From NCBI GenBank assembly GCA_020060545.1, contig JAGUZX010000134.1, forward strand, positions 29,808-93,807: a DNA stretch of 64,000 nucleotides. The letters are read 5' to 3'. Below the pieces are notes generated by a model. That model had not been told where the DNA came from and did no database searches. It saw only the letters and a program-made list of their open reading frames with translations. Positions 1-21,529 of the stretch are shown here, piece by piece. The stretch comes from Desulfovibrio sp. Its GTDB lineage: Bacteria > Bacillota > Dethiobacteria > DTU022. Position 1 is the stretch's first letter, and each line of letters starts with the position of its first letter. The position numbers were made by a program, and so were the translations under genes.

Positions 1-1084
1 TAGCGTAAATGTTGTTTGTATACACGCATCGGGCCGTGTAGCGCACGTTGGGCACCTTGTAGAGGGAGGAGATCGGCATCATCATCACCGATGGTGTCGT
101 CGCGCCCCACGAAGTATAGGCGCCGTTGTCGAGCACCATCTCGACATCGCGGAATGTGAGCCTGCCCTCCCTGGTGCAGCCCTGTGCTATTTTTGCTTCC
201 ACCTTCTGGCGCGCAGGCGTGGCGAAAAATTCTTCTTCCCTGGAGAAAACGAGCTTTACGGGGCGCCCGGCATAGTAAGCCAGCAGGATGGTGATGAACT
301 CGAACGGATAGGTATCCAGCTTGCTTCCGAAAGCCCCGCCGATCGCGGTTGAAACTACCCGGACCCGCTTGTCTTTCAAGCCCAGCGCCGCCATCGCTTC
401 GAGAAAATCCCGCTGGGCGAGGTAACGGATCTGGGTCGGGCTGTAAACGGTAAGGTTCCCACCCGGCTGGAATTCCGCCAGGCAGCCCGAGGTCCCCAGG
501 CAGCAGTGCGTCACCCAAGGCAGCAAAAAGGTTTCTTCCACCACAAAGTCGGCCTGCCTGCGCCCTTCGTCCGGATCGCCGCAGATCAGCTTCCAGGGCA
601 GTTTAAGGATGTTGCTTCCTTTCTCCTCGTGGATCAGCGGCGCGCCCTCGCGCATCGCTTCCACCGGGTCGAAAACGGCCGGCAGCGGCTCGTATTCAAC
701 CTCGATCAGGCGCACCGCTTCTTCCGCAATTTCCAAGCTTTCCGCGGCGACGGCGGCAACCTCATCCCGGTACTGGCGCACCTTATCCTTTTTCAAGACC
801 GGGTTGTCCTTTAGAAAGCCTACCTTGATCTCCGGGGTGTTGTAACCGGTGATCACCGCCCTTACCCCGGGTAACTTCTCGGCGCGGGAGGTGTCAATAT
901 TAAGGATGCGCGCATGAGCGTGCCGGCTCCAGAGGATCTTGCCGTAGAGCATCCGCGGCATTTTTAAATCGTGGATGTAAACGGCTTTCCCCTGGACTTT
1001 ATCCAGCGCGTCAAGCTTCGGCAACCTCTTTCCGACCGCTTGCAGTGCAACCCCGCCTGATTCCGGTTCAAGAACTTTCGCCAC
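1..1084 (-). CDS. Xanthine dehydrogenase-family molybdopterin-binding large subunit (5' part; runs off the window edge)
   Basis: Not in the ORF track. Manual translation from GTG at 1084 gives MAKVLEPESGGVALQAVGKRLPKLDALDKVQGKAVYIHDLKMPRMLYGKILWSRHAHARILNIDTSRAEKLPGV..., later VSTAIGGAFGSK (Moco-contact motif). Follows the FAD and 2Fe-2S subunits. Confidence 0.93.
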   Translation of the reverse strand, partial: MAKVLEPESGGVALQAVGKRLPKLDALDKVQGKAVYIHDLKMPRMLYGKILWSRHAHARILNIDTSRAEKLPGVRAVITGYNTPEIKVGFLKDNPVLKKDKVRQYRDEVAAVAAESLEIAEEAVRLIEVEYEPLPAVFDPVEAMREGAPLIHEEKGSNILKLPWKLICGDPDEGRRQADFVVEETFLLPWVTHCCLGTSGCLAEFQPGGNLTVYSPTQIRYLAQRDFLEAMAALGLKDKRVRVVSTAIGGAFGSKLDTYPFEFITILLAYYAGRPVKLVFSREEEFFATPARQKVEAKIAQGCTREGRLTFRDVEMVLDNGAYTSWGATTPSVMMMPISSLYKVPNVRYTARCVYTNNIYA

Positions 1085-1550
1085 AGGAACACCCCCTTTT
1101 GCTTGCCGCTGCAACGGCCTCCACGATCTTGGCGTAACCGGTGCACCGGCATAGATTTCCCGCCATCCCCCGCCTGATCTGATCCCGGCTGGGACGAGGG
1201 TTTTCAGCCAGCAGCGCCTTGGCCGACATGATCATGCCCGGGGTGCAGAAGCCGCACTGGACGGCGCCGTGCTCCACAAATGCCTCCTGCAGCGGATCGA
1301 GCCGGCATTGCTTCCCGGCCAAGCCTTCAACGGTCTGCACGCTTTTCCCGTTAACAAAGGCCGCAAGCATCAAACAGGCGTTCACTGCTTCCTGCTCGAC
1401 AAGCACGGTACAGGAGCCGCATTCACCGTAGCCGCAGCCCTCTTTGGCGCCGCGCAGCTCAAAATGCTCCCGGAGCATTTCCAAAAGAGTAACCTGATCG
1501 GGCACTTCCGCGGTCACCGGGTCACCGTTAAGCAGAAACGATATCTTCAC
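1068..1550 (-). CDS. XDH-family (2Fe-2S)-binding small subunit
   Basis: GCGYGECGSC...C and QCGFCTPG...NLCRCTGY motifs. Start trimmed to GTG (VKISF) behind GAAGGGG; 1559 is an alternative start. Confidence 0.93.
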   Translation of the reverse strand: MKISFLLNGDPVTAEVPDQVTLLEMLREHFELRGAKEGCGYGECGSCTVLVEQEAVNACLMLAAFVNGKSVQTVEGLAGKQCRLDPLQEAFVEHGAVQCGFCTPGMIMSAKALLAENPRPSRDQIRRGMAGNLCRCTGYAKIVEAVAAASKRGCSCGESS

Positions 1551-1555
1551 TGCAA

Positions 1556-2437
1556 TCACCCCTTCATCGTTCGTCCCGAGCGCTCGAGAGCCTCGGCGGC
1601 GGCGCGCGGCAGCAGCGCGCAAATCATCTTCTTCCGGTAAGCGGCAGTTGTCCGGAAGCTCGTTCTGGGGCTCGAATCTTCTAGCGCCAGCACTCCCGCT
1701 TCTTCCCACACGGCGCGGTAGAAGGGTTTTCCGGCTACATGCTTCTCCGCCCTGATCGCCCTGATCGGGGTCGGAGCGGCCAGCGTCAACGCAATCCTTG
1801 CTTCTCGACAGATCTCCCCGCCGGCTTCAGGAATCAGCGTGACGGCAACCCCGAGCAGCGGCAGATCCATCGCTTTGCGCCGGGTATGCTTGAGATAGCG
1901 GGAACAGGCCTCCGGCGGAAGCTCCGGGATGATGATCTGTTTCAACACTTCATTGGCGGCCAGCGCGGTTTTACCGGGGCCGCGGAAAAATTCGTTTAAG
2001 GAAATGTTCCTTTCCCCCTCCGGCCCTTCAACCAGGAGTACGGCATCGAGAGCGAGCAGCGGACCCGCCGTATCCGCCGAAGGCGCCCCATTGCAGATAT
2101 TCCCCCCCACGGTGGCCACGTTGCGCACCTGAACAGACCCCAGGTTGTCGACAGCATCAGCCAGCAGGGTGAACCGTTCCCGGATCAGCGGCGAGCGTTC
2201 AATCGCCCGGTGCGTAACCATGGCACCGAGCCGCAAATACCCGCCGCTAAAGTTGATTTCATTAACGCCGGGCACGCTGCGCAAAGATATGACATGATCG
2301 GGTTCCTTTTTCCCCTGCTTCATCTCCACAACCAGGTCTGTTCCTCCCGCAATAAGGCGGGCTTTTTCCCCGTACGCACTCAAAAGATGGACCGCATCTG
2401 CAATCGATTTTGGTTCGTGATAAGTAAACCTTCGCAA
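1556..2437 (-). CDS. XDH-family FAD-binding medium subunit
   Basis: IAGGTDL and QVRNVATVGGN...PSADT motifs of CoxM/XdhB-type flavoproteins. Confidence 0.93.
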   Translation of the reverse strand: MRRFTYHEPKSIADAVHLLSAYGEKARLIAGGTDLVVEMKQGKKEPDHVISLRSVPGVNEINFSGGYLRLGAMVTHRAIERSPLIRERFTLLADAVDNLGSVQVRNVATVGGNICNGAPSADTAGPLLALDAVLLVEGPEGERNISLNEFFRGPGKTALAANEVLKQIIIPELPPEACSRYLKHTRRKAMDLPLLGVAVTLIPEAGGEICREARIALTLAAPTPIRAIRAEKHVAGKPFYRAVWEEAGVLALEDSSPRTSFRTTAAYRKKMICALLPRAAAEALERSGRTMKG

Positions 2438-2455
2438 TGCTTATCCCTCCCCTAA

Positions 2456-2477
2456 TTGGAAGTTGGAAGTTAGAGGT
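2456..2477. repeat. Heptamer tandem run (GGAAGTT-like), inverted relative to the 2641-2673 run
   Basis: ttggaagttggaagttagaggt. Confidence 0.6.
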
Positions 2478-2492
2478 TTGCTGTCGGAAATA

Positions 2493-2535
2493 CCCCTCTT
2501 ACCCTAACCCTCTCCCGCCAGGGGGGGAGAGGGAA
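2493..2535. repeat. Palindromic intergenic repeat of the CCCTAACCCTCTCCC...GGGAGAGGG type
   Basis: cccctcttaccctaaccctctcccgccagggggggagagggaa; stem ccctctccc/gggagaggg. Confidence 0.7.
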
Positions 2536-2640
2536 TCCTCTCTCTCGCTTCCCGCCATCAGAGCGCCATGCGGCTGTCGGCATGCCGAAACCGTCCCCAC
2601 TTTTCTTGCTATCAACAGCTCGAGAGCGGCCTCATTTTTT

Positions 2641-2673
2641 TCCCACTTCCCACTTCTCACTTCCCACCTCTCA
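2641..2673. repeat. Heptamer tandem run (CTCACTT/CCCACTT) overlapping the hydantoinase B stop codon
   Basis: tcccacttcccacttctcacttcccacctctca. Confidence 0.75.
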
Positions 2674-4420
2674 ATACGGCGGTAGCTTTTTCGTCCACAG
2701 TAAAAGTGTCCCTGTCGATGACCACACCGTAATCTTCTCTTGCCTTTTCGAAGGATACGACACCGTTTCTCACGTCGGCAAGAACCTTTTCCGGCGGGCG
2801 CAGGTGCGGGTCGCCGTAACCGCCGCCGCCTCCGGCCTGCTGGTACCAGATTGTCCCTTGCGGGACACCGTGCACCAGCTCCTTGCTCCTCGGAACGTAC
2901 ACGCGTCCGTCCGGGTAGCGCAGCTCGATTCTGTTCAAAGTGCCCGGCTTTCCTCCAAAAAGGCCGAAAGCGGGCTCGACATCGCCGTCGCCAAAAGTGA
3001 CACAGGTAGTATTACCCGCGTTAATAACGAATCCGGTCTCCACGCCCAGCCCGCCGCGCCACCGTCCGGCGCCCGCGGAATCGCAGAGATACTCGTGCTG
3101 GAGCAGCAGGTGGGGATCTTGCAGCTCAAACATTTCATAGTCCTGCGCCAGGACCCCTCCGGAGGCGTCGATCATACCGATATGATCGTAACCGTCAAAG
3201 CCGCGTGTTCCCCCCGAGCCGCCTTTCATGGCCAGGAAAAGAATATCGACGTAGGGTGCGTTCTTCCGGGGATCCTGGCCGGTCACCAGGCCGCACAGCA
3301 GCTGATTCCATCCCGCGGTAACCCGCTCCGGGATGGCCGGGGCAAGCGCCCGGATGATCGCGTCGGCGACCGGCGGGCAGAGATGATTGCCGAAGGTTGT
3401 CGCGGCCGGGAAGGCGGCGTTAAGAATTTTCCCCTCCGGGATGATCATCCGGATTGGCCTGGACATGCCGTCATTGTGCGGGATATCGGGATTGACCATC
3501 TGCAGGAACGTCAGGATCACGGCTGATGCGGAAGAGGTAAAGGTGCCGTTCACAAAAGCAGGCGTCTGGGAGTCGGTTTCTGAGAAATCAAAAGTAATCG
3601 TTTCATCTTCCACGGTGATTTTGACCCGAATTTTGTAGGTTGAACCGATGTTTTTCCCGTCATAATAAACGGTCGATTCGCCAAGGTAGACCCCGTTGGG
3701 GATACTCCTGATCTCCGCCTGCATCATTTTTTCCGTTGAACGGTAAAGATAATCCTTGTGGGCTTCGTATACCGCCAGGCCGTACTTGCCGATCAGTTCC
3801 AGCATCCGCCTTTCGGCCAGGGTGCAGCTGCCGATCTGGGCCGTTAAATCCGCCGGCACGATATCGTAGCGGATATTGGCAAAGATCAGATCCCAGACAT
3901 CCCGGCGCAGTTTTCCTTTTTCGAAAACTTTCACCGGTGGAATCCGCAGGGCTTCCTGCCATACCTCCGTGGCATCGGGATTGTAGCCTCCCGCCACCGC
4001 GCCCCCGATATCGGCCTGATGACCCTTGCAGGCAGCCCAGGCGATAAGCTTTCCCTCGCCGAAAATCGGTTTATATACGGCTACATCATTGTTCTGGTTT
4101 CCGAGGGAGAAAACATCGTTGTGGAAAATCACATCGCCCGGGTAGATCTCGTCCCCAAAATAACGCACAATGTACTCGCATACGGGGCCCAGGGAGAACG
4201 ATAAGATGGGGAGATTCTCGGTTTGTTCCAGCATTTTACCCGCCCCGTCATAAAGGCCGGTGACAAAGTCCTTGGCCTCACAAAGGATCGGGGACCTGGT
4301 TGTCCGGGTAATGGCATGGCTCATCTCCTGGGTGATTGATTTAAACCGCCGCTGAAACACCGAAACGAGAATTTTGTCGATCTTGACCGCGCTTGCCGCA
4401 TCCGTTTTCGCTTCGCTCAT
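2657..4420 (-). CDS. Hydantoinase B/5-oxoprolinase-family subunit (ATP-dependent lactam hydrolase)
   Basis: SPILCEAKDF, KGHQADIGG, EVWQEALRIPPVK, SAGAGRWRGG, AGGGGGYGDP motifs; 587 aa. Confidence 0.93.
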   Translation of the reverse strand: MSEAKTDAASAVKIDKILVSVFQRRFKSITQEMSHAITRTTRSPILCEAKDFVTGLYDGAGKMLEQTENLPILSFSLGPVCEYIVRYFGDEIYPGDVIFHNDVFSLGNQNNDVAVYKPIFGEGKLIAWAACKGHQADIGGAVAGGYNPDATEVWQEALRIPPVKVFEKGKLRRDVWDLIFANIRYDIVPADLTAQIGSCTLAERRMLELIGKYGLAVYEAHKDYLYRSTEKMMQAEIRSIPNGVYLGESTVYYDGKNIGSTYKIRVKITVEDETITFDFSETDSQTPAFVNGTFTSSASAVILTFLQMVNPDIPHNDGMSRPIRMIIPEGKILNAAFPAATTFGNHLCPPVADAIIRALAPAIPERVTAGWNQLLCGLVTGQDPRKNAPYVDILFLAMKGGSGGTRGFDGYDHIGMIDASGGVLAQDYEMFELQDPHLLLQHEYLCDSAGAGRWRGGLGVETGFVINAGNTTCVTFGDGDVEPAFGLFGGKPGTLNRIELRYPDGRVYVPRSKELVHGVPQGTIWYQQAGGGGGYGDPHLRPPEKVLADVRNGVVSFEKAREDYGVVIDRDTFTVDEKATAVLRGGK

Positions 4421-6522
4421 TTCACAACCCTCCCCGCAAATTCTTCCTCTCTCTCTTTGAGGAAGAGCATGAAACTGCCGTACCGATCTACAACTAAAGC
4501 ATACTCGGGGGTCACAAACGCCGTTGTATTGACTTGCTCAATGATCGCCGGTCCCGCAATACGGTTGCCGTATTTAAGCCTGGCGCCGTCAAATACCGGG
4601 ACATCGGCGAACTCCTTTTGGGCGGGCAGGTATACCTTGCGGTGCCGTTTGTATGCCGGCGCGGGGTCGCCGCCCGTAAATTCCTCTTCCATAAACTGCG
4701 GTTTATCCGTGCGGCCGATACAGGAAAGGCGCATATTCAAAAGTTCAATCGGTGTCCCCTCTTTTTCCAGCGAGTAGCCGTAAAGCAGGTTGTGCTTCCG
4801 GTGAAACTGCCGGGCGATCTCTTCGAGGTTAAAATTAAAAACGTCTTCCCGCGAAACCGATACGTTAACCTCGTGATATTGCTTGACGTAGCGCATATCC
4901 AGGCTGTAGCTGTTTTCGACCCTTGTTTCGGGGATTCTTTCATTGCGCAGGTATCCCCTTCCTTCTGCCTCCATTTCTTGATACAGGTTCAAAAACGTTT
5001 CCTTTTGTAAACGCGATAACGGGACGGAATAAGTGCGGACGAAATCGTGTTTCAAGTCGGACATGAGCATCCCGGCCGCGCAGAAAATAGATGACTCCTT
5101 GGGGATAATGATGACCGGTATTTCCAGCTCAAGTGCGATCATGCAGGCATGATTGGGGCCGGCGCCGCCGGCTACCACTAGGGGGAAATCCCGCGGGTCT
5201 TCTCCTCTTTTTACCGACACCTCGCGCACCCCGGCAGCCATATTCACATTGATGATGTTATACATGCCGGCGGCGGCTTCCACCAGATCAAACTTTAATT
5301 GATCGGCGATATGCTTTTTGATCGCCTCCGCAGCCCTGGCATAGTTGAGCTTCATTTTCCCGCCGGCGAAGAAGTCGGCATCCAGGTAGCCCAGGACCAG
5401 ATCGGCGTCGGTACACGTGGGCAGTTCGCCGCCGCGATCGTAGCAGGCGGGGCCCGGTTTTGAACCGGCGCTTTGGGGTCCCATCCGCAACAGCCCGCCC
5501 TCGTCCAACCACCCGATGCTGCCGCCGCCGGCGCCGATGGTAACGATGTCCAGCATCGGCAGAGCCAGGCGGAGCCTGTTGATATCGCCTTCGGTAGTAA
5601 CCAGCGGGGTTTTAGCCTTGATCAGGGCCGCATCGAAACTGGTTCCTCCCATGTCCACGGTAATACAATCGTTGAAACCGTTGATGGAGGTATAGCTTAT
5701 CCCCGCCACCGGGCCGGCCGCGGGGCCGGACAGCAGCGTCACGGCCGCTTCTGCCACGGCGACCTCCGGTGCGACAACACCGCCGTTCGACTGCATAATC
5801 AGAAGCGTCCCTTGAAAGCTGTTTTCCTTAAGCCTTGTGACCAGGCTCTGCAGGTAGCGCCGCAGTACCGGACCCACGTAGGAGTTAAGTACAGTGGTAC
5901 TGAGGCGATCATAAAAACGGATCGAAGGAAGCAGGCTGCTGGAAACGGAGAGATAGCTTTGCGGCATTTGTGAACCGACAATCTCCGCCGCCTGCCGCTC
6001 ATGCTCTTTGTTGGCAAAAGAGTTCATAAAACAGATTGCTACCGCTTCCACCCCTTCTTTTTCAAAGAGCTTGACGGCCTCCGCCACGCTCTCCGGCTGA
6101 AGCGGCATTACTACCGCTCCCCGGTAATCAACCCTTTCCTCCACGGGCCAGCGCAGGTAACGCGGCACCAGCGGCACCACATTCGGGTAACGGTTGTTGT
6201 ACTGCTCTTCCCTGATGCCCCTTCTCATCTCCAGGGCGTCACGCACACCCCTGGTTGTCAAAAGGCCCGTTTTGGCGCCGCTGTAAGTGAGCACGGCGTT
6301 CGTAGTCACGGTAGTGCCGTGCACAATGGTCTCCACCTGCCCCAGGAACTGCGCCAGGGAAAGATCCAGATCGCGGGCCATCTCGTTCAAGCCGTTTAAA
6401 AGCCCGATGGAGGGATCATCCGGAGTGGAAAGCACTTTGTAAATCTTCGAGGTTCCTTCTTCAAAAGCCAGCAGGAAATCGGTGAAAGTTCCTCCCACAT
6501 CGATGCCGATCTTGTATTTCAA
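4417..6522 (-). CDS. Hydantoinase A/5-oxoprolinase-family ATP-binding subunit
   Basis: IGIDVGGTFTD, HGTTVTTNA, LLSGPAAG, DMGGTSFD, TIGAGGGS, GPQSAGSKPGPACY; 4-bp overlap with the B subunit. Confidence 0.94.
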   Translation of the reverse strand: MKYKIGIDVGGTFTDFLLAFEEGTSKIYKVLSTPDDPSIGLLNGLNEMARDLDLSLAQFLGQVETIVHGTTVTTNAVLTYSGAKTGLLTTRGVRDALEMRRGIREEQYNNRYPNVVPLVPRYLRWPVEERVDYRGAVVMPLQPESVAEAVKLFEKEGVEAVAICFMNSFANKEHERQAAEIVGSQMPQSYLSVSSSLLPSIRFYDRLSTTVLNSYVGPVLRRYLQSLVTRLKENSFQGTLLIMQSNGGVVAPEVAVAEAAVTLLSGPAAGPVAGISYTSINGFNDCITVDMGGTSFDAALIKAKTPLVTTEGDINRLRLALPMLDIVTIGAGGGSIGWLDEGGLLRMGPQSAGSKPGPACYDRGGELPTCTDADLVLGYLDADFFAGGKMKLNYARAAEAIKKHIADQLKFDLVEAAAGMYNIINVNMAAGVREVSVKRGEDPRDFPLVVAGGAGPNHACMIALELEIPVIIIPKESSIFCAAGMLMSDLKHDFVRTYSVPLSRLQKETFLNLYQEMEAEGRGYLRNERIPETRVENSYSLDMRYVKQYHEVNVSVSREDVFNFNLEEIARQFHRKHNLLYGYSLEKEGTPIELLNMRLSCIGRTDKPQFMEEEFTGGDPAPAYKRHRKVYLPAQKEFADVPVFDGARLKYGNRIAGPAIIEQVNTTAFVTPEYALVVDRYGSFMLFLKEREEEFAGRVVK

Positions 6523-6545
6523 TTTATCGCCCCCCCTAACACCCG

Positions 6546-6662
6546 AGTATTCAGTGGTCAGAATCAGTAGCCAGAATATTATGGGCGCTAAACCGTTTGC
6601 TCCAATTCCTGATTTCTAAATTCTGACTCCTGGCTCTTGACTTCTGAATTCTGACTCCTGCC
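6546..6662. repeat. Inverted pair of heptamer runs (TCAGAAT-like and TTCTGAC-like)
   Basis: agtattcagtggtcagaatcagtagccagaat ... ttctgac tcctggc tcttgac ttctgaa ttctgac tcctgcc. Confidence 0.7.
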
Positions 6663-6669
6663 TTCTTAG

Positions 6670-8292
6670 TTAAAATATTGACGGTTCTTTATACTCCCCA
6701 AAAACCTCTTTAAAGACCGCTGTCATCTCGCCCACTGTGGCATACGCTTTTACCGCCTCCACCAGGTAAGGCATCACATTCTTCCCGGCCTTGGCTGCAG
6801 CCTCCAAATCTTTCAAAGTGCGCACCACCGTTCTTGAATCCCTGGTGCGCCTGACTTCCCTTAATCTTGCCACCTGTTCATCCAGCGCGGCGGGGTTATA
6901 TTCGTGGAGCTCAACATCCGGCTCATCTTCTTCAACCACGTACTTGTTTACGCCGACCTTCACCAGCGTTCCATCCTGGATCGCCTTTTCCTGTCGGTAA
7001 GCCTGTTTGGCCACTTCTCTCTGGACATAGCCGCTTGAGACCGCCGCGGCCATGCCGCCGATTGCTTCGACATTGCGCATCTCGGCGCTAATTTTTTGCT
7101 CCATCGTGCTGGTGAGAGACTCGATATAATAAGAGCCTCCCAGCGGGTCAACCGTATCCCGCAAACCCATTTCTTCCGCAAGGATATGACTGGTCATTAA
7201 AGAGATCAACGCCGCTTTCGGCGTTGGGATAGTGTAGGCCTCGTCATAAGAGCAGAGCGCCATGGTCTGTGTCCCGCTGAGGGCGGAGATAAGCGCATAA
7301 TAGGCTCCCCGGACGATATTGTTCTCGGGCTGCTGCATGGTCAACCCCGCGCCGCCCCCTCCGGCCAGCATGCGGAACTGCAGCGAACGCTTTTCTTTGG
7401 CGCCGTAGCGCTCCCGAATCGTTTTGGCCCACAGCCGGCGGGCGGCGCGAAACTTGGCCACCTGTTCAAAAAGGTTCCCGTAGATATCGAGATTAAAAGA
7501 AAGGCGGCCTACAAAATCGTCGATACCGAGCCCGCGCGCGAGAACATGCTCGATATAGGTAATCGCAATCTCAAAAGCATAAGCGATCTCCTGGACGGGA
7601 TTGGCTCCCGACTCGCGGATATGGTAACCGCATATGCTGACCGGGTAAGTGCGCGGCATCGCTTTGCAGCTGTATTCAATGGTGTCGCCGATCAGCCGGA
7701 TCGACGGCTCCACCGGGAAAATCCACATCCCCCGGCCCACCATCTCCTTCAGAATGTCATTCTGTGGGGTGGCGCTGATCCGGTCCAGCGGAAAACCGAA
7801 TTTCTCCGCCACCACCTGGTACATGGCCAGGATAATCGAGGCCACGGCATTGACCGTCAGGCCGCTGCCGATGGTGTCCATTTTAATACCCGCAAAGGCA
7901 ATCTCGAAGTCGCGCAAACTGTCTACCGCCATCCCCACGCGTCCCACTTCTCCCTCCGCCATGGGGTCGTCGGAATCCAGGCCCAGTTGCGTCGGCAGGT
8001 CGAAGGCCACATTCAGCCCTGTTTGACCGTGCGAGATAAGGTATTTGAAGCGTTCATTCGTTTCCCCGGGAGTACCGAAACCCGAGTACTGCCGGGTTGT
8101 CCAGGGAAGCTTGCGAAACATTTCCGGGTGAATCCCGCGCGTATACGGAAATTCTCCGGGGTTGCCGAGATCCCTGGCATAGTCGATCTCTTTCAAATCT
8201 TCAGGAGTGTAGATCGGTTTTACGCTTATCCCCGATTCCAGGATGACTTCCTTAATTTCTTCACCATCCTTAATATATCTCGCTCCGCTCAT
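6670..8292 (-). CDS. Adenosylcobalamin-dependent acyl-CoA mutase, substrate-binding large subunit (divergent MCM family; IaaGH-like context)
   Basis: PGEFPYTRG, RQYSGFG, AFDLPTQLGLDSD, QNDILKE, GYHIRESGA, DPLGGSYYIE; atypical FRMLAGGGGAG and TQTMALCSYDEA. Confidence 0.9.
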   Translation of the reverse strand: MSGARYIKDGEEIKEVILESGISVKPIYTPEDLKEIDYARDLGNPGEFPYTRGIHPEMFRKLPWTTRQYSGFGTPGETNERFKYLISHGQTGLNVAFDLPTQLGLDSDDPMAEGEVGRVGMAVDSLRDFEIAFAGIKMDTIGSGLTVNAVASIILAMYQVVAEKFGFPLDRISATPQNDILKEMVGRGMWIFPVEPSIRLIGDTIEYSCKAMPRTYPVSICGYHIRESGANPVQEIAYAFEIAITYIEHVLARGLGIDDFVGRLSFNLDIYGNLFEQVAKFRAARRLWAKTIRERYGAKEKRSLQFRMLAGGGGAGLTMQQPENNIVRGAYYALISALSGTQTMALCSYDEAYTIPTPKAALISLMTSHILAEEMGLRDTVDPLGGSYYIESLTSTMEQKISAEMRNVEAIGGMAAAVSSGYVQREVAKQAYRQEKAIQDGTLVKVGVNKYVVEEDEPDVELHEYNPAALDEQVARLREVRRTRDSRTVVRTLKDLEAAAKAGKNVMPYLVEAVKAYATVGEMTAVFKEVFGEYKEPSIF

Positions 8293-8323
8293 ACTTTACC
8301 TCCTTACCTGGTCAACACTTAGG

Positions 8324-8740
8324 CTAAAGAGCCTGCCGGAGGGCGGGTACCTCTTTTTGGAAAAAATGCGTAATCTCTTCAAACGAAGTGCCGCCGGGGA
8401 AGACTGCTTTTACCCCCAGGGACTTCAAGCGCGCCAGATCACGCCGGGGGATAACCCCCCCGACGGTTACAATGATGTCTCCCAGGCCGGCATGGCGCAG
8501 CTTCGCCATCAGCTTCTCGGTAATCGGGAGATGCGCCCCCGAGAGGATACTGAGCCCGATCACGTCTACGTCTTCTTGAAGAGCGGCTTCCACGATCTGA
8601 TCCACGGTTTTGTGCAGTCCCGTATAAATCACGTCCATCCCCGCGTCCCTCAGTAAATAGGAGATTACCTTCGCGCCGCGGTCGTGACCGTCAAGTCCCG
8701 GTTTTGCAATCAACACACGCACTCTTTTATGCTCGTTCAT
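8324..8740 (-). CDS. Cobalamin-binding small subunit of acyl-CoA mutase
   Basis: [11 protein letters not shown] (DxHxxG), [15 protein letters not shown]. Confidence 0.93.
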   Translation of the reverse strand: MNEHKRVRVLIAKPGLDGHDRGAKVISYLLRDAGMDVIYTGLHKTVDQIVEAALQEDVDVIGLSILSGAHLPITEKLMAKLRHAGLGDIIVTVGGVIPRRDLARLKSLGVKAVFPGGTSFEEITHFFQKEVPALRQAL

Positions 8741-8950
8741 CAGCGCCACCAATCCCTTCACCCGATAGAGGCCATGATGGTGTGCCTTACCGGCCGTATG
8801 ATAATTAGGGTGTCACTCCAACAAAAGAGGCCTCTTGCTGGCATTGTAGCACACCGCCTTTGGAATAGGTATGTTCGTTTTAGGCAAAATAAACCCATCC
8901 CTTTCGTTCCGGTCATACAAATAAAATCAATCTACAAAAACCGTTCGGGT

Positions 8951-10087
8951 TCACAAGTTAAAAAGCCCTCCGGCAATCAAAGCGCGCTGGGCAAAGCCGC
9001 CGCCTTCAAAGAGCTGCAGCGTTTTGGCGTCCCGCATATACTTCTCGACCGGGTACTCCCGGGAATACCCATAACCGCCTAAAACCTGGACGGCATCGGT
9101 CGCGATCCGCATCGCCGCCTCTGTAGCCACAAGCTTGGCCATCGCTGACTGGCCGGTGCAGGGAAAACCCTGGTCCAACAGCCAGGCCGCCTGGTAAACC
9201 AGAAGCTTTGCCGCTTCGATCCCCGCCGCCATTTCCGCCAGCATAAACTGAATCGCCTGGTTTGCGGCGATCGGCTTGCCAAACTGGACCCTCTCACGGG
9301 CGTATTTAACCGCTTCCGCCATGGCCGCCCGGGCCAGGCCCACGCCGGCAGCCCCGGCGAGCACACGGGCAAGGTCGGAGGCTTGCGCGGACAACGCCAT
9401 GCCGTCTCCTTCTTCACCGACACGGTCACCCGCGGGCACCCTGACATTTTTAAAAGAGATTTTTGCGGTATTGACTGCCCGGAGCCCCAGTTTTTTCTCG
9501 GTTTTCTCGATCGTCACCCCGGGAGAGCGGCAATCGACCGTAAAAGCGGAGACTTTTTTATTCTCTTCCCCGCCGCTTGCGGCGAATACAACCAGATAAT
9601 CGGCATAAGCGGCGTTGTTAATGAAAGCTTTTGCCCCGTTAAGAACGTAGTTATCACCATCGCGCCCGTAGCAGGCGGCCAGCGCCGCCAAGTTGGAACC
9701 GGCTTCGCGCTCCTTTAAGGCAAATGAAACCAGTTTTCCCTGGGTGCAAATTAAAGGCAAATATTTCTCTTTTTGGGGCCCGGTGCCGGCGCAAATAAGA
9801 GGATGCAGCGCAACGGCATGGCCAATCACGCTGGCTGCCACTCCGGCACAGCCGCAAGCCAGTTCCTCAATCACCGCGGCGGCGGTAAGGGTATCGATTC
9901 CCGCTCCCCCGTACGCCTCGGGGACGGTCAGGTTGGCGAGGCCCAAGGCGTTCAGTTTTTTAAAAATCTCGCCAGGAAAGCGTTCCGTTTCATCGATAGC
10001 AGCGGCAACAGGCGCAATCTCTTTTACCGTAAAATCGCGAACCATCTTTTTAATGGCCTCTTGTTCTTCGCTGAGCTTGAAATCCAT
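8951..10087 (-). CDS. Acyl-CoA dehydrogenase
   Basis: LNGAKAFI, KLGLRA, RVQFGKPI, QVLGGYGY, YMRDAK..QLFEG. Confidence 0.92.
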   Translation of the reverse strand: MDFKLSEEQEAIKKMVRDFTVKEIAPVAAAIDETERFPGEIFKKLNALGLANLTVPEAYGGAGIDTLTAAAVIEELACGCAGVAASVIGHAVALHPLICAGTGPQKEKYLPLICTQGKLVSFALKEREAGSNLAALAACYGRDGDNYVLNGAKAFINNAAYADYLVVFAASGGEENKKVSAFTVDCRSPGVTIEKTEKKLGLRAVNTAKISFKNVRVPAGDRVGEEGDGMALSAQASDLARVLAGAAGVGLARAAMAEAVKYARERVQFGKPIAANQAIQFMLAEMAAGIEAAKLLVYQAAWLLDQGFPCTGQSAMAKLVATEAAMRIATDAVQVLGGYGYSREYPVEKYMRDAKTLQLFEGGGFAQRALIAGGLFNL

Positions 10088-10192
10088 TATTCCTACCCCC
10101 GTTTATCAAATATCCGGTCTATGGGAGGGCTTGAGCGCTCTTCCGCCCGCAGCGATTAGGGGCCTGAGCAATCCGCGCCCGGCAAGGGCCGC

Positions 10193-11389
10193 TCAGATTA
10201 TTTTCGCTTCACGGAGCGCTGCCAGCTCTTCCCTGCTCAACCCCATGGCGCCGCAATAGGTTTCCTCATTGTGTTCCCCGAGGCGGGGCGGGAAGCTCAA
10301 GACTTTCCCCGTGCCTTTCAGGAAAGCGGTCATATGGGGAGGGGGGGCCAGCGTCAGTTCAATACCGCTGCGCTCATCCCTGGCCCGGAGGATGTTCTTT
10401 TGCACGGCCGTTTCAGCAAGGACCTCGGGAATCGTGTTGACCCTGGAAATGGCGACTTGCGCTTCATTAAAGAGTTCGATCAGCTCAGCGGTCGTAAAAG
10501 TGAGGGTAATTTCGCTTATGGCCCGGTTAAGGTTGTTGACATCGGCGATGCGCCCGGCATTGCGTTGATACTCTTCTTTGGCCAGCACACTAAATGCGGG
10601 TATGGCGGTCACCGACTCCCACTGCCGGTCATTGCCTACGGCGATGTAGACAAAGCCGTCCCGGGTCCGGTAAACGGAAACCGGGGCAAAAAATTCATGG
10701 GTATTCCCGCGGCGGGTAATCCGGTTGCCGAAGCTCTTCGCCAGGCAGAGCGGGACTGTCAGCCAAGAAACTGTGCTCTCAAACATCGCCACATCAATCC
10801 TGCTGCCCTCTCCGGAAATTGCTCTCTTCAGAAGGGCTTTCATGATCAGGCCGTAAGCGTGCTCGCTCGTGCCCATATCGGGAAGGGGAATCCCGGTGAC
10901 AACGGGGCTTCCTTCTTTTTCACCGGTTAGCTCCATCAAGCCGCCCCTTGCCTGCAGAATCGGATCGTAAGCAGCCTCGTTGGATTCAGGGCCGAAACCG
11001 GTAATCCCCACCCAGATCAGGTCTTTTTTTACGGCGGCCAGCCGCTGGTAATCTATCCCCAGTTTGAGATAATTTTTAGGAAGCTGGTTGGTGATGAAAA
11101 CGTTCACTTTCAGCCTGGCGACAATCTCCAGTAAAAGCTGCCGGCCTTTTTCTTCGGCGAGGTTGAGGGTAATCGCCTTCTTTCCGGCATTAATCGCCAA
11201 AAAATAAGTGTTCATACCGTCCTCGTTTAACCTCTTCTCCCCGACATAACGGTTGGGGTCCGGCATGGCGGGGTTTTCAATCCGGATCACCTTCATCCCG
11301 TCCTGGGCCAGGCGGTAGGTCAGATAAGGAGCCACGGTGGCCTGTTCCAGGGCAATAACCGTGATATGCTTAAATAGATCTTCTTCCAT
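10193..11389 (-). CDS. Class III (CaiB/BaiF) CoA-transferase
   Basis: NAGKKAITLNL, ITGFG, AYDPILQARGG, GIPLPD (catalytic Asp position), PPRLGEHN. Start trimmed to MEEDL behind AGAGG. Confidence 0.92.
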   Translation of the reverse strand: MEEDLFKHITVIALEQATVAPYLTYRLAQDGMKVIRIENPAMPDPNRYVGEKRLNEDGMNTYFLAINAGKKAITLNLAEEKGRQLLLEIVARLKVNVFITNQLPKNYLKLGIDYQRLAAVKKDLIWVGITGFGPESNEAAYDPILQARGGLMELTGEKEGSPVVTGIPLPDMGTSEHAYGLIMKALLKRAISGEGSRIDVAMFESTVSWLTVPLCLAKSFGNRITRRGNTHEFFAPVSVYRTRDGFVYIAVGNDRQWESVTAIPAFSVLAKEEYQRNAGRIADVNNLNRAISEITLTFTTAELIELFNEAQVAISRVNTIPEVLAETAVQKNILRARDERSGIELTLAPPPHMTAFLKGTGKVLSFPPRLGEHNEETYCGAMGLSREELAALREAKII

Positions 11390-11592
11390 GGTTATCCCAT
11401 CCTCTATTAAGTATCGGCTCGTCCCGCTCTGTTGCCGCAAGCATCCGCTTGAATGTTTAAACTTGAAGCCCGCAGCACAGCGGGTGTTGGCGCCCTATAA
11501 TTCTGCTATTCTTTTAAATATTCGACCTTGTTTGAATCATTCCTGCATGATCAAACCATTACAATTCCGGTAATCAAGAATAGTTCCGGCCA

Positions 11593-12369
11593 TCATTTCC
11601 CCTTCCACGCCGGTTTTCTCTTTTCCAAAAAAGCGCTGATTCCCTCCCTGAAGTCCTCGCTTTCAAAGCAGCTCCTCTCGATGAGATCGATCGCGGCGCT
11701 GCTTGGGCAGCGGTGATCCGCAGAGCATTGGTTAACCGCCTTTTTCATTCCTTTCACCGCCAGCGGGGCGTTGCCGGCGATGAGCCGCGCCACTTTCAAG
11801 GTCGCCGTTTCGAGTTCCGCTGCGGGAACAACCTGGTTTGCCAGGCCGATGGCGTACGCCCTCGACGCCGGCATCGGCTCCCCGACCAGGAGCATTTCTT
11901 TGGCCGCCGCTATCCCCACCAGGTTCACAAGCCTCTGAATAAGATTATAATTCAGGGAGATGCCGAGTTTTGCGGCGGGGATGCCAAATCTCGCTTCCTC
12001 AGCACAGATTCTCAAATCGCAACTAATGGCCAGCTCGCAACCCGCGCCCATGGCCCACCCGTTAATCATGCCGATGACAGGTTGGGGGCACCCGGTGATG
12101 CTCTCGATGGCCCTTTCCACATTGCTCAGGTACTCGCGGTGCCTTTCTTTACCGGCCAGTTCTTGCAGCTGGGTTATATCCGCCCCGGAGGCAAAAGAGT
12201 TGCCCGCCCCGGTAATGATCACAACAGCGGTCTGCTCGTCAGCGGCCAGCGAAAACATCATTCCTGCAAGCTGGACCCACATAACGGCGTTAAAAGCGTT
12301 GCGTTGTTCGGCACGGTTGATCAGGATTTTGGCAATACCGTCTTTTTTGCTGATCTGAAAATAACTCAA
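11593..12369 (-). CDS. Enoyl-CoA hydratase/isomerase (crotonase) family protein
   Basis: FASGADI, GWAMGAGCELAISCDLR, SEDFREGISAFLEKRKP. Start uncertain (TTG 12369 or GTG 12378). Confidence 0.9.
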   Translation of the reverse strand: MSYFQISKKDGIAKILINRAEQRNAFNAVMWVQLAGMMFSLAADEQTAVVIITGAGNSFASGADITQLQELAGKERHREYLSNVERAIESITGCPQPVIGMINGWAMGAGCELAISCDLRICAEEARFGIPAAKLGISLNYNLIQRLVNLVGIAAAKEMLLVGEPMPASRAYAIGLANQVVPAAELETATLKVARLIAGNAPLAVKGMKKAVNQCSADHRCPSSAAIDLIERSCFESEDFREGISAFLEKRKPAWKGK

Positions 12370-12559
12370 GCCGCTCACTCCTCCATAAATGGCCAAGGTT
12401 AGTTCTTTCACCTGGATTTTACTTAATCGGGCTGATTCGGTCAACTTCGAGGCATAATCTACCGGCTGCGGCAGCATGCCCTCTCCATGGTGACATTTTC
12501 TCAGACCGCTTACAGGGTGACAATATCACAGTCCGATTACACCCGCGGGTAAGGTTTCA

Positions 12560-12588
12560 TTGACTTTGCCTTAACGCGGATTTATAAT
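12560..12588 (+). promoter_or_regulatory. sigmaA/sigma70-type promoter for the carboxyltransferase gene
   Basis: TTGACT-N17-TATAAT. Confidence 0.75.
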
Positions 12589-12747
12589 AAACACAACCTT
12601 GTTCGAGGAAAGGTTGCCGGGAAACATACGGGAAATCCATCTTTTTTGAACACATAGCCCGCTTCGAATAATCAGACACTTCCTGCTCCGATCATTATAC
12701 TCCGGCGGGTTCATCAGAACAGGACTGAAAGATGGAGTGATGAAAGA

Positions 12748-14307
12748 ATGCCAAAAAAAACCTACCAGACTGAAATTGAAAGGCTGCGGGCCTTGCAGGA
12801 AAAAGCAAGGCTGGGAGGTGGGGAAAAGGCCGTCGCGAAGCAGCACAGCCAGGGCAAACTCACCGCCCGGGAAAGAATCGACGTCCTCCTGGATCCGGGC
12901 AGTTTTGTCGAGTTTAATACCCTGGCCGAACACCAGTGTTACGATTTCGATATGCAGGAAAAGAAGTTTCCGGGCGACGGGGTGGTGACGGGTTACGGGA
13001 CCATAGACGGCAGGCTTGTTTTTGTCTTCTCCGAAGATGTAACCGTTCTCGGCGGATCGGTCGGCGCAACCCACGGCGCAAAGATCTGTTATACCATGGA
13101 CAAGGCGATTACCGTGGGCGCTCCTTTAATCGGTCTCTATGAATCCGGCGGCGGGAGGATCCATGAAGGTTTCACCGCTTCCCGCAATGTTGCCGGCATG
13201 TTTCACCGCAACACCAGAGCCTCCGGCGTGATCCCGCAAATCTCGGCGATCATGGGCACCTGCGCCGGGGTGGCCGTCTATTCGCCGGCCATCACCGACT
13301 TTATTTTCATGGTCGAAGGCACCAGCCAGATGTTTATAACCGGTCCCGGTGTGATCAGGGCGGTGATGGGTGAACAGGTTGATCCGGAAAGCCTCGGCGG
13401 CGCCAAAATACACTCCGAATTAAGCGGCAACGCCCATTTTGTTTACCCGAATGACCGGGAGTGCCTCCAGGGCATCAGGAGGCTTTTGAGCTTCCTCCCC
13501 CTCAACAACACGGAGGATCCCCCGTTCGTTGAGACGGGCGATGACCCCAACCGGACCACTGACGACCTGATGGAAATTGTCCCCGACGATTTTCGTTTCC
13601 CTTACGATGTCAAGGCTGTAATTACCCGCATCGTTGATAATGGCGATTTTATGGAAATTCTCCCTAAGTTTGGCAAAACTCTGGTGATCGGCTTGGCCAG
13701 GCTTAACGGCAACACGGTAGGCATTGTCGCCAACCAGCCCCTGGTCATGGCCGGCTGCCTCGATGTTGACTCTTCCGATAAAGGCGCACGGTTCATCCGT
13801 TTCTGCGACGCCTTTAACATCCCCCTGGTTAACCTGGTCGATGTACCGGGGTTCCTGCCCGGGACCAGGCAAGAGTATAGCGGAATCATCCGGCACGGCG
13901 CTAAAATGCTTTATGCTTATTCCGAAGCAACCGTACCCAAGATCACCCTAAACTTAAGGAAAAATTACGGCGGGGCGGTCATGGCCATGTGCTGCAAGGG
14001 CACGGAAGTCGACCAGATGTTCGCCTGGCCGATCGCCCAGCCGGTAGTCCTGGACACGGCGGCTGCCGTGGAGATCATTTTCAGGAAAGAAATTGCGGGA
14101 GCGGCTGACCCGGCGGCGGAAAAAGAAAGGAGGATCAGGGAGTACGACTACTCTTACTCCAACCCCTTTAATCCGGCCGGCAAAATGCTGCTTGACGATG
14201 TGATCGAACCCCGTGAGACCAGAGCCCGGTTGATCTCCGCCTTGAGAATGATGAAAACCAAGCGGGAGGAAAAGCCCTGGCGGAAACACGGCAACATCCC
14301 GCTTTGA
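12748..14307 (+). CDS. Acyl-CoA carboxyltransferase/decarboxylase subunit (PccB/MmdA family)
   Basis: GKLTARERI, PGDGVVTGYG, SGGGRIHEG, KGARFIRFCDAFNIP, DVPGFLPG..QE..GIIRHGAK, KHGNIPL. Confidence 0.92.
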   Translation: MPKKTYQTEIERLRALQEKARLGGGEKAVAKQHSQGKLTARERIDVLLDPGSFVEFNTLAEHQCYDFDMQEKKFPGDGVVTGYGTIDGRLVFVFSEDVTVLGGSVGATHGAKICYTMDKAITVGAPLIGLYESGGGRIHEGFTASRNVAGMFHRNTRASGVIPQISAIMGTCAGVAVYSPAITDFIFMVEGTSQMFITGPGVIRAVMGEQVDPESLGGAKIHSELSGNAHFVYPNDRECLQGIRRLLSFLPLNNTEDPPFVETGDDPNRTTDDLMEIVPDDFRFPYDVKAVITRIVDNGDFMEILPKFGKTLVIGLARLNGNTVGIVANQPLVMAGCLDVDSSDKGARFIRFCDAFNIPLVNLVDVPGFLPGTRQEYSGIIRHGAKMLYAYSEATVPKITLNLRKNYGGAVMAMCCKGTEVDQMFAWPIAQPVVLDTAAAVEIIFRKEIAGAADPAAEKERRIREYDYSYSNPFNPAGKMLLDDVIEPRETRARLISALRMMKTKREEKPWRKHGNIPL

Positions 14308-14316: not shown

Positions 14317-14961
14317 TTATTTGGGGTGAGGGTTGGCCTTGGCGGCATACTTGATAATTTCCCAGTACATCTTTCCCCTGGCCGCGATACCTTTCCAAAA
14401 ACCCAATTTTTCTTCCTTCATCACATGGGAAAGATCGGCCAGGTTTACAATCTTGACCGGAATATTCATTTCTTCAACATAGCGATGCAGCGCCACCTCC
14501 ATCCCGAAACGGGAGAGGTCAAGGTCTGAAATAGATTCCAGGAGTTCCCTGCGTAGCGCTCTCTGCCCTGAAAGAAACGGCGTTATTTTCTGGGCGATAT
14601 CGGTGGCCACCCTGCCCTTTTCAAACAGCCCCACGGTCATGGGACACCGCTCGTTGATTACCGGATCCAGTAGATCGGTCACATGCTTCTCGGTCAGGCC
14701 GATTAAATCGGCATCCAGGAAAAGCAAGATTTCGGCGCGGGCATGATCCAGCCCGGCCTTGATCGCCCCACCCTTGCCACGGTTTTCCAGCAGTTCGATT
14801 ACCTCCACACCGTCATACTGCAGGGCCACCTGCACCGTGCTGTCACTCGAACCGTCGCTGACAACGATAATCTGATTCACTACCGGGCACCGTTTTAAAA
14901 CGCAGAGGACCTCACCGATAGTTCTTGCTTCGTTGAAAGCCGGTATGATGGCAGCGATCAT
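14317..14961 (-). CDS. Glycosyltransferase family 2 protein
   Basis: IIPAFNE, VVSDGSSD, NRGKGGA, FLDAD, LSGQRA. Confidence 0.88.
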   Translation of the reverse strand: MIAAIIPAFNEARTIGEVLCVLKRCPVVNQIIVVSDGSSDSTVQVALQYDGVEVIELLENRGKGGAIKAGLDHARAEILLFLDADLIGLTEKHVTDLLDPVINERCPMTVGLFEKGRVATDIAQKITPFLSGQRALRRELLESISDLDLSRFGMEVALHRYVEEMNIPVKIVNLADLSHVMKEEKLGFWKGIAARGKMYWEIIKYAAKANPHPK

Positions 14962-15005
14962 GGCCCTCTCCTCCAATATTAAATATTGTGCGTAAACATC
15001 GCCTG

Positions 15006-16064: not shown

Positions 16065-16102
16065 AAATTCACATCCCATCTCGATCCTGAGAATTAAATC
16101 CC

Positions 16103-16142
16103 TCCTGCCCCCCCCTTTAAATAAGGAAGGGGGTGACTTCCC
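16103..16142. repeat. Palindromic intergenic repeat (CCCCCCTTT...AAGGGGG type)
   Basis: cctgcccccccctttaaataaggaagggggtgacttcc. Confidence 0.45.
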
Positions 16143-16206
16143 GTCACATAAGAGCTCGGGTCGCATTTAAGCATTCAATTTTTGATCAACGCCAATCGGT
16201 ATGGAA

Positions 16207-16241
16207 TCTCACTTTCAACATCTCACTTCTCACTTCTCACA
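16207..16241. repeat. Heptamer tandem run (CTCACTT) directly after the rseP stop
   Basis: tctcactttcaacatctcacttctcacttctcaca. Confidence 0.7.
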
Positions 16242-17255: not shown

Positions 17256-17273
17256 TAGCCTGCATCTCCCGTC

Positions 17274-18428: not shown

Positions 18429-18486
18429 ATTTCCCCCCCCCCGGCCGTGGCAGCAGCTTGCGTCAATTACTTTTGCAGCCTTATTT

Positions 18487-19281: not shown

Positions 19282-19305
19282 AGGCCACCACCTTCACAAA
19301 CTTTT

Positions 19306-20043: not shown

Positions 20044-20154
20044 CGGCTACCCCACCGTTCAATAGTAGCGGCTCCCTCATTCATCTAAGAGAGCCGCTTC
20101 TGTATTCATCCAGCTGCCACCGGTCTCTCCCTCCGTCCCCGGAGCATCGGTGTG

Positions 20155-20712: not shown

Positions 20713-20715
20713 AAA

Positions 20716-21438
<723 letters not shown>

Positions 21439-21457
21439 TCAAGACCTCCATCGTCTT

Positions 21458-21485: not shown

Positions 21486-21490
21486 AGCGC

Positions 21491-21522: not shown

Positions 21523-21529
21523 GCAGTGC

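Follow-up and report, generated by a model that had tools for sequence, protein, structure and literature searches.

The left part of the DNA described here probably encodes the anaerobic indoleacetate (iaa) pathway in a lineage-specific form. It belongs to an uncultured member of the Bacillota whose genome carries markers of benzoyl-coenzyme A (CoA) metabolism. The stretch, which we call the window, comprises 64,000 nucleotides of contig JAGUZX010000134.1 (C23) in assembly GCA_020060545.1, from position 29808 to 93807. Its source genome, G000, consists of 2.52 Mb in 135 contigs and is 95.5% complete and 2.2% contaminated. Coordinates below are those of the window unless a contig or locus is named. 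A sequence-only reading had assigned positions 1-14307 to an iaa-type pathway in a Firmicute, naming a crotonase, a class III CoA-transferase, an acyl-CoA dehydrogenase, a two-subunit B12 mutase, a two-subunit hydantoinase, and a three-subunit molybdenum (Mo) enzyme, plus a divergently transcribed carboxyltransferase. The open reading frame (ORF) listing and the Pfam and NCBIfam scans confirm this gene set, its positions, and the divergent orientation of the carboxyltransferase, and all eleven genes are intact, with complete ORFs and full-length family matches. None of the window's cluster genes reaches an NCBIfam equivalog cut-off, and the assignments are made at the family level.

The left bound of that reading did not hold. 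Because the window begins at C23:29808, its position 1 truncates the Mo subunit gene, and a scan of the 29.8 kb of C23 to the left extends the cluster by about 10 kb. In the order of transcription, the left extension encodes the remainder of the Mo subunit, a second acyl-CoA dehydrogenase (ACAD2), a 3-hydroxyacyl-CoA dehydrogenase/enoyl-CoA hydratase fusion, an Old Yellow Enzyme (OYE)-type protein, a 143-aa ORF, and an ATC-hydrolase-like protein. The genes for an indolepyruvate oxidoreductase, IorA and IorB, are transcribed toward this operon. The expectation that β-oxidation genes would lie past the left edge came true for the fusion and ACAD2, but not for a thiolase. We considered a TrpB-like gene to the left of IorA as a further member, feeding indole into tryptophan, and dropped it: many cluster-free genomes of the family have orthologues at 71-85% identity. 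The left boundary was set at IorA for this reason, giving a catabolic island at C23:19536-44114 (~24.6 kb).

To our knowledge, the biochemical characterisation of anaerobic indoleacetate breakdown is confined to denitrifying Aromatoleum/Azoarcus. By description, the island has the same enzyme set as the Aromatoleum iaa cluster, in a Bacillota anaerobe rather than a denitrifying betaproteobacterium. A 2012 Aromatoleum paper reportedly adds to that cluster a Mo dehydrogenase of the xanthine dehydrogenase (XDH) family, a hydratase/dehydrogenase fusion, and a thiolase. The Aromatoleum features without a counterpart in the island are an IaaF dehydrogenase with a GGG motif, the IaaB ligase, the IaaM binding protein, GntR/MarR regulators, and the thiolase, whereas the island adds IorAB, the carboxyltransferase/crotonase pair, ACAD2, the OYE-type reductase, and the ATC-hydrolase-like gene. 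For the cluster of A. aromaticum EbN1/A. evansii, the relevant passages of three papers describe the hydantoinase-like IaaCE, the family III phenylsuccinyl-CoA transferase IaaL, the B12 mutase IaaGH, and an acyl-CoA dehydrogenase step (PMC8360864; PMC8453981; PMC9613470); IaaCE corresponds to UniProt Q5P602/Q5P600 (PMC8453981). According to the sections of PMC8360864 that treat IaaF, its orthologues all have the GGG motif and are sited in iaa operons, and the named carriers are A. aromaticum, Rhodopseudomonas palustris, Ferroglobus placidus, strain NaphS2, Desulfocarbo indianensis, and a Thermoplasmatales archaeon. The same sections predict iaa operons in strict anaerobes (Desulfatiglans anilini, other sulfate reducers, and F. 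placidus), which also encode an electron-transfer flavoprotein (ETF) paralogue, and extend the predicted pathway to other Proteobacteria (R. palustris, sulfate reducers) and to archaea (PMC8360864). We found no description of an iaa-type cluster in Firmicutes/Bacillota in the literature searched, although supplementary lists, which lay outside the search, might name Gram-positive carriers.

The two-subunit B12 mutase was used to find related loci. Its large subunit, MutL (6670..8292, minus strand), is a putative (2-aminophenyl)succinyl-CoA/(2-aminobenzyl)malonyl-CoA mutase with a full-length Pfam MM_CoA_mutase match. In an alignment with human methylmalonyl-CoA mutase, its RQY and GR residues match the Tyr and Arg of that enzyme, and these residues presumably bind the free carboxylate. 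The small, B12-binding subunit, MutS (8324..8761, minus strand), matches Pfam B12-binding and TIGR00640 and has the DGHDRG motif (DxHxxG). A MutL scan of one genome per GTDB species yielded 80 loci with at least 63% identity, all in metagenome-derived genomes. Four of them belong to Bacillota/'Syntrophomonadaceae' (80-86% identity), and the other 76 (L015-L090; 63-76%) are nearly all labelled Syntrophorhabdaceae, Desulfobacterales, Desulfatiglandales, or 'Deltaproteobacteria'. In the mutase tree, window MutL and the 79 related-locus mutases included in it form a clade with 100% support in the Shimodaira-Hasegawa-like approximate likelihood ratio test (SH-aLRT), separate from the two other mutases of G000. 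The five Bacillota sequences are one of three basal lineages in this clade, and therefore the tree does not set the direction of transfer. Translated searches (tblastn) of a plasmid collection with the mutase returned 338 records, all below 60% identity (the 15 listed were below 49%), and no iaa-type mutase.

Gene content and order around these mutases match the island closely. Among the 76 non-Bacillota loci, genes at least 50% identical to the island's were found for MutS in 72, for the CoA-transferase in 40, for the Mo subunit in 37, and for transferase plus Mo subunit in 29; many of the contigs are short, so that these counts are minima. The loci share the island's order (CoA-transferase, dehydrogenase, MutS, MutL, hydantoinase, Mo enzyme), with 58-76% identity for transferase, MutL, and Mo subunit. 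The search for the same gene set in other Firmicute genomes, which the sequence-only reading had suggested, found it in four (G001-G004; G004 is the source of L014). In three of them, the order CoA-transferase, dehydrogenase, MutS, MutL, HydA, HydB, XdhM, XdhS, XdhL, ACAD2 recurs at 63-86% identity, and in the fourth the same core order is partial, on a short contig.

Unlike the island, many of the 76 loci encode a GGG-motif dehydrogenase (46 of 76; 42 of the 56 in which 3 kb or more of sequence lies upstream of MutL), and two of them, L065 and L020, also have ETF genes and a PaaK-like ligase. L065 additionally encodes MeaB, an ETF:quinone-oxidoreductase-like protein, and a GntR regulator. We treat loci of the L065/L020 type as iaa operons because the features published for such operons are present: GGG dehydrogenase, ETF, PaaK-like ligase, and GntR (PMC8360864). 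In a search of a large protein database, the IaaF-like dehydrogenase of one such locus, L031, had 120 listed matches at 84-96% identity, which were environmental and carried generic names.

Searching G000 with the L065 and L020 proteins returned the window genes as best matches for the mutase, the CoA-transferase, and all three subunits of the Mo enzyme. MutL is 66-69% identical to the L065/L020 mutases, versus 43-46% for the G000 paralogues. The family III CoA-transferase (10193..11440, minus strand; full-length Pfam CoA_transf_3), a putative IaaL-type arylsuccinyl-CoA transferase, is 58-63% identical to the L065/L020 transferases, versus 27-30% for the next paralogues, and has the same position relative to the mutase. 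The Mo (molybdopterin) subunit of the XDH-family hydroxylase occupies window 1..1114 (ORF 2-1114, minus strand), which covers the N-terminal 371 aa of a 781-aa protein encoded at C23:28576-30921. It has the Pfam domains Ald_Xan_dh_C, MoCoBD_1, and MoCoBD_2, and is 62-63% identical to its L065/L020 counterparts versus 36-39% for paralogues. Its best NCBIfam model, 4-hydroxybenzoyl-CoA reductase alpha, scores 612 bits, under the 994-bit cut-off. A true 4-hydroxybenzoyl-CoA reductase alpha, one of these paralogues, is encoded on contig C116, and we therefore regard the island enzyme as a distinct relative.

The two smaller subunits give narrower margins. The 2Fe-2S subunit (longest ORF 1068..1709, minus strand; Pfam Fer2, Fer2_2) is 59-60% identical to its L065/L020 counterparts and the best G000 match by a small margin; its true start is probably internal because the family matches begin near residue 55. 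The flavin adenine dinucleotide (FAD) subunit (1556..2437, minus strand; Pfam FAD_binding_5, CO_deh_flav_C) is likewise the best G000 match to the L065/L020 FAD subunits, at 38-47% and by a small margin. Taken together, these comparisons argue that the Mo hydroxylase, the IaaL-type transferase, and the mutase have their orthologues in the loci that carry IaaF-type genes. The proposal of an iaa-type pathway in a Firmicute thus gains comparative support, with 58-69% identity to syntenic iaa-type loci for mutase, transferase, and Mo subunit. Orthology of the remaining parts did not hold throughout: the dehydrogenase and the hydantoinase appear to be paralogous types, and the crotonase is not a canonical hydratase.

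The hydantoinase/oxoprolinase pair is a putative ATP-dependent lactam hydrolase. HydB (2657..4420, minus strand) has a full-length Pfam Hydantoinase_B match, and HydA (4417..6522, minus strand), the ATP-binding part, has the domains Hydant_A_N, Hydantoinase_A, and Hydant_A_C. The closest NCBIfam models are caprolactamase beta for HydB (401 bits) and caprolactamase alpha for HydA (709 bits), each with a cut-off of 1000. Among solved structures, HydA is closest to chain 6yra_A (507 bits), from the caprolactamase CapAB of Pseudomonas jessenii, a two-subunit ATP-dependent lactam hydrolase (PMC8453981; 6yra). Unlike CapAB, HydAB sits in an aromatic acyl-CoA context rather than a caprolactam context, and it scores below the equivalog cut-offs. 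HydA is 57-70% identical to proteins of five iaa-type loci (L019, L022, L050, L081, L089), and HydB is 65-75% identical in L019, L050, and L089 and 30-33% in the remaining loci with a match. In L019, a HydA of the window's type lies beside a GGG dehydrogenase. Searching G000 with the L065 HydA and HydB found no hydantoinase homologue besides the window's own.

G000 encodes an Oah/BamA ring-cleavage hydrolase (584 bits; cut-off 464) at C116:11079-18269 (L103), together with a dienoyl-CoA-hydratase-like crotonase and the 4-hydroxybenzoyl-CoA reductase alpha subunit (1140 bits, above its 995-bit cut-off) and FAD subunit. Among 60 relatives, a mutase orthologue (86%) occurs in three, all from the family of G000; in the others, only paralogues at 44-51% or no match at threshold were found. 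BamA exceeds its cut-off in 6 of 41 family genomes, and all four sampled genomes with a mutase orthologue are among those six. The cluster is therefore confined to BamA-positive genomes in the family sample, which fits a pathway ending in an aromatic acyl-CoA.

The acyl-CoA dehydrogenase step of the island also departs from the known cluster. ACAD1 (8951..10087, minus strand; four ACAD Pfam domains) lies between the CoA-transferase and MutS, which is the IaaF position. Its catalytic Glu is present in an FEG motif that aligns with the YEG of chain 1ukw_A; ACAD2, whose start overlaps the stop of the Mo subunit gene just to its right, also has FEG. In the tree, ACAD1 and ACAD2 each fall in a Bacillota-only clade on the butyryl-CoA-dehydrogenase side, apart from the GGG clade. 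ACAD1 is the least conserved core gene among the Bacillota loci (53-66% versus 73-86% for its neighbours), and its motif varies from FEG in the window to IEG in L011, IEE in L014, and YGG in L012 and L013, where no Glu was found at the alternative helix-G position either. Of 16 orthologous clusters in a large protein database, 12 keep the Glu and four have YGG.

An IaaF-type GGG dehydrogenase was not found in the island. The only GGG dehydrogenase in G000 (C41:16336-17484; L104:7837-8985) branches, on a long branch, as the sister of the IaaF-like clade, and it carries the helix-G Glu that is typical for isovaleryl-CoA dehydrogenase. Its neighbours are a carboxyltransferase, a biotin carboxylase, a crotonase, and a beta-keto-acid cleavage enzyme, which resembles an isovaleryl-CoA/methylcrotonyl-CoA-carboxylase cluster. 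Given this isovaleryl-CoA-like context, we set aside the idea that it acts as an IaaF in trans, which may still hold.

Some loci outside the Bacillota also deviate at this step. The Syntrophorhabdaceae-type loci L015, L016, and L017, a basal mutase lineage, lack an acyl-CoA dehydrogenase in the slot between CoA-transferase and MutS, and their genomes yielded no orthologue of the carboxyltransferase. They may represent a third variant of the decarboxylation/oxidation step.

The divergent carboxyltransferase (12748..14307, plus strand; full-length Pfam Carboxyl_trans) is of the propionyl-CoA carboxylase (PCC) beta/methylmalonyl-CoA decarboxylase alpha type, and scores 748 bits against TIGR01117 mmdA (cut-off 999). 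Its closest solved relatives, PCC beta (601 bits), methylmalonyl-CoA decarboxylase alpha (581 bits), and 12S transcarboxylase (564 bits), all act on 2-substituted malonyl-CoA, which makes it a candidate alpha subunit for arylmalonyl-CoA decarboxylation. Orthologues at 86-87% identity occur in exactly the three mutase-bearing genomes among 40 other family genomes, whereas matches in the other 37 reach at most 55% and include no orthologue. With the 78% orthologue in G004, the gene is present in five of five cluster-bearing Bacillota genomes. Three Syntrophorhabdaceae genomes gave no match at E <= 1e-120, and one deltaproteobacterial genome gave none above 49%. We rejected a role as the glutaconyl-CoA decarboxylase of the lower benzoyl-CoA pathway: the solved relatives are PCC beta, MmdA, and 12S, and no orthologue was found in the BamA-positive, cluster-free genomes G007 and G031 (the latter 69% complete). 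The earlier suggestion that a biotin-type carboxyltransferase serves the decarboxylation is thus supported indirectly, by the lack of a GGG dehydrogenase in the island, by this distribution, and by the malonyl-CoA-type relatives.

The crotonase-fold protein (11593..12477, minus strand; Pfam ECH_1; four orthologues begin at the Met at 12378) adjoins the carboxyltransferase in all five cluster-bearing genomes. Its first catalytic Glu is present (GAGCELA), and the second is replaced by Ala, with PAAKLG for the PE..LG of 5zai_A (E113/E133 in 5zai numbering, printed alignment). PAAKLG is invariant in the five Bacillota orthologues. The protein is therefore not a canonical hydratase and is a candidate epimerase or decarboxylase. 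The pair adjoins the CoA-transferase in G000, lies ~7 kb away in G003, and is on other contigs in G002 and G004.

A carboxyltransferase of this kind would need partner subunits, which are not encoded beside it, and G000 has a possible set. An operon at C134:60139-62156 (L108:6140-8157) encodes an OAD_gamma-like protein, a biotin carrier, and OAD_beta (the Na+ pump), with no adjacent alpha subunit. This is the single OAD_beta gene in G000, and four carboxyltransferase paralogues are scattered elsewhere in the genome. The operon therefore needs an alpha subunit encoded elsewhere, and we infer that the island carboxyltransferase may assemble with it. There is a precedent for such an arrangement in Acidaminococcus, where the alpha gene of glutaconyl-CoA decarboxylase lies in a catabolic operon away from the membrane genes. 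The known Na+-translocating biotin decarboxylases act on methylmalonyl-CoA, glutaconyl-CoA, or oxaloacetate. The island carboxyltransferase shares its family with MmdA and PCC beta, but we know of no such enzyme with an arylmethyl-malonyl-CoA as substrate.

The left extension supplies possible entry and exit steps. IorA exceeds the equivalog cut-off of TIGR03336 (indolepyruvate oxidoreductase; 798 versus 651 bits), and in the sample of 40 other family genomes exactly three, all cluster-bearing, have orthologues of it (79-82%); the other genomes have copies at 37-49% or none at threshold, and a second G000 copy, on C84, is 44% identical. The fusion (C23:25210-27225, 671 aa) is 59-66% identical in five iaa-type loci, and its hydratase domain retains the second catalytic Glu (FPEVTLG). 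No thiolase is present in the island, and ten Thiolase_N matches above cut-off lie elsewhere in G000, the nearest at C23:96290-97066. The ATC-hydrolase-like gene is 87% identical in G001, and the 143-aa ORF, which matches no family, lacks a counterpart in relatives. None of the flanks of the 76 non-Bacillota loci has IorAB, the carboxyltransferase/crotonase pair, ACAD2, or an OYE-type or ATC-hydrolase-like gene.

From these genes we propose the following route. A dedicated second-copy IorAB would convert indolepyruvate to indoleacetyl-CoA, taking the place of the IaaB ligase. The three-subunit Mo hydroxylase would then oxidise C2 of the pyrrole ring, and the HydAB lactamase would open the resulting oxindole ring at the expense of ATP, yielding (2-aminophenyl)succinyl-CoA. 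The family III CoA-transferase would shift CoA to the other carboxyl, and the B12 mutase would produce (2-aminobenzyl)malonyl-CoA. After removal of the carboxyl group and oxidation of the chain, the fusion and a thiolase encoded elsewhere would release acetyl-CoA and 2-aminobenzoyl-CoA, which would enter the benzoyl-CoA pathway. For the carboxyl removal we lean, with a little less than even confidence, toward a sequence in which the carboxyltransferase moves the carboxyl onto biotin as the alpha subunit of the C134 Na+-decarboxylase, the crotonase sets the stereochemistry, and ACAD2 or ACAD1 forms 2-aminocinnamoyl-CoA. This would supplant the one-step IaaF reaction. That the crotonase, without its second Glu, supplies the epimer required by the carboxyltransferase is speculation.

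The same core pathway could instead operate with ACAD1 itself as a non-orthologous replacement for IaaF, with the carboxyltransferase/crotonase pair serving otherwise or just travelling along. ACAD1 sits exactly in the IaaF slot and evolves faster than its neighbours, and the loss of its Glu in L012, L013, and four of the database clusters fits a mechanism without proton abstraction. The pairing of carboxyltransferase and crotonase also recurs elsewhere in G000, which favors this alternative. We nevertheless consider it unlikely, since the window's ACAD1 and most orthologous clusters keep the Glu, the protein is distant from the GGG clade, and the presence of the carboxyltransferase in every cluster-bearing genome, with no orthologue found in the 37 others, would go unexplained. 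A different substrate is another way to read the island, which could degrade some other N-heterocycle or lactam through a substituted succinyl-CoA. The hydantoinase resembles the caprolactamase models more than it does the type prevailing in iaa loci, the dehydrogenase differs, and an IaaB-type ligase is missing. IorAB enzymes accept other arylpyruvates too, and the iaa-type metagenome loci were themselves assigned to indoleacetate from sequence. Against this stand the three enzymes of unusual chemistry (Mo hydroxylase, transferase, and mutase), whose orthologues lie in loci with IaaF-type genes, the L019 locus with a window-type hydantoinase beside a GGG dehydrogenase, and the attached IorA with its score above the equivalog cut-off, so that we judge another substrate to be quite improbable. 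Finally, a TGA codon in the OYE-type gene, the divergent ACAD1, and the lack of a regulator or transporter in the G000 island might suggest a chance juxtaposition or a decaying remnant with no coherent function. Every core gene is intact and full length, however, the gene order is kept across three genera and the core order across phyla, and the genes are tightly packed with several overlaps (for example HydA/HydB and XdhL/ACAD2), which leaves this explanation with very little probability.

The indoleacetate reading of the island remains our preferred one, although several observations weigh against it. HydA is 33-35% identical to the prevailing iaa-locus type (34-39%, all below 45%, in 31 loci), suggesting that the hydantoinase is a paralogous type and not an orthologue of the form that prevails in Desulfobacterota/Syntrophorhabdaceae. 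ACAD1 occupies the IaaF position yet is not of the IaaF type. The island at C23:19536-44114 has no ligase, ETF, MeaB, thiolase, regulator, or transporter. Upstream of the CoA-transferase in G001 and G003 are a PucR-type regulator and a tripartite ATP-independent periplasmic (TRAP) transporter, neither of which is present at the corresponding site in G000, and these suggest uptake of the free acid in those genomes. The distance between the pair and the core is variable: in G001 the carboxyltransferase and crotonase lie beyond TrpB-like, SerA, thioesterase, and MeaB genes. Two of the three other G000 carboxyltransferase paralogues are also beside crotonase genes, and the pairing is therefore a common module. 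The cluster-bearing genomes are related, coming from three genera of a single family together with G004, so their co-occurrence counts are not independent. The tie to the Aromatoleum/Azoarcus proteins runs through loci that are called iaa-type from published features. The last of these points is the OYE-type gene (L009:11104-13062, minus strand), which contains an in-frame TGA at L009:12964-12966, ~4.8 kb left of window position 1.

That TGA falls at residue 33 of the predicted Fe-S flavoenzyme, right after a Cys (KYAAC-TGA-VSNYNS), and the frame read through it is 42% identical to the G001 homologue over all 650 aa of the latter. G000 encodes SelB; no tRNA-Sec was found among its 42 tRNAs, and the TGA region gave neither fold support for a selenocysteine insertion sequence (SECIS; z-score 0.0) nor an Rfam match. 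The codon may represent selenocysteine, a nonsense mutation, or an assembly error.

If the indoleacetate reading is correct, the pathway reaches Gram-positive anaerobes with benzoyl-CoA markers and provides, in methanogenic or sedimentary settings, a route from tryptophan into the benzoyl-CoA pathway. It would also offer a second solution to the odd arylmalonyl-CoA step, possibly coupled to a sodium pump, with a crotonase-fold epimerase/decarboxylase as a candidate and with the electron-acceptor problem of IaaF possibly avoided by the Bacillota variant. A bolder version, which we regard as conceivable but unlikely in its entirety, is that syntrophic Bacillota have rewritten the auxin pathway to save energy, with tryptophan instead of free indoleacetate as its starting point. 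IorAB would give indoleacetyl-CoA without ligase ATP and with reduced ferredoxin, and a Na+-pumping biotin decarboxylase of a new substrate class, together with a crotonase-fold arylmalonyl-CoA epimerase, would conserve the energy lost in the IaaF reaction.

With respect to ligases, no AMP-binding gene was found in the island, and the best G000 match to the L065/L020 ligases is on C84 (36-39%). At C84:23025-25146, a PaaK-like ligase lies beside an XDH-type FAD subunit at the contig end, and FeS and Mo subunits are found at the start of another contig (C19:275-3069). C84 also carries a TRAP transporter and the 44% IorA copy. The C84 and C19 genes may be a further ligase and Mo-hydroxylase system divided by assembly.

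Base composition gives no island signal. To the left of IorA lie the TrpB-like gene, nusA, and infB, and to the right of the carboxyltransferase (14317-22213) are a glycosyltransferase gene, ispG, rseP, dxr, cdsA, frr, pyrH, and tsf. With housekeeping genes on both flanks, the catabolic island thus interrupts a housekeeping array. Farther along, from ~59530 to 64000 and past the right edge (C23:89337-94689), is a second split acyl-CoA mutase, together with MeaB and two dehydrogenases with a YEG motif. This mutase is 43-44% identical to the MutL queries from iaa loci and 48% identical to the window's own MutL, and the thiolase at C23:96290-97066 lies beyond it. Judged by its gene content, this region looks like a separate cluster for acyl-CoA rearrangement and β-oxidation.

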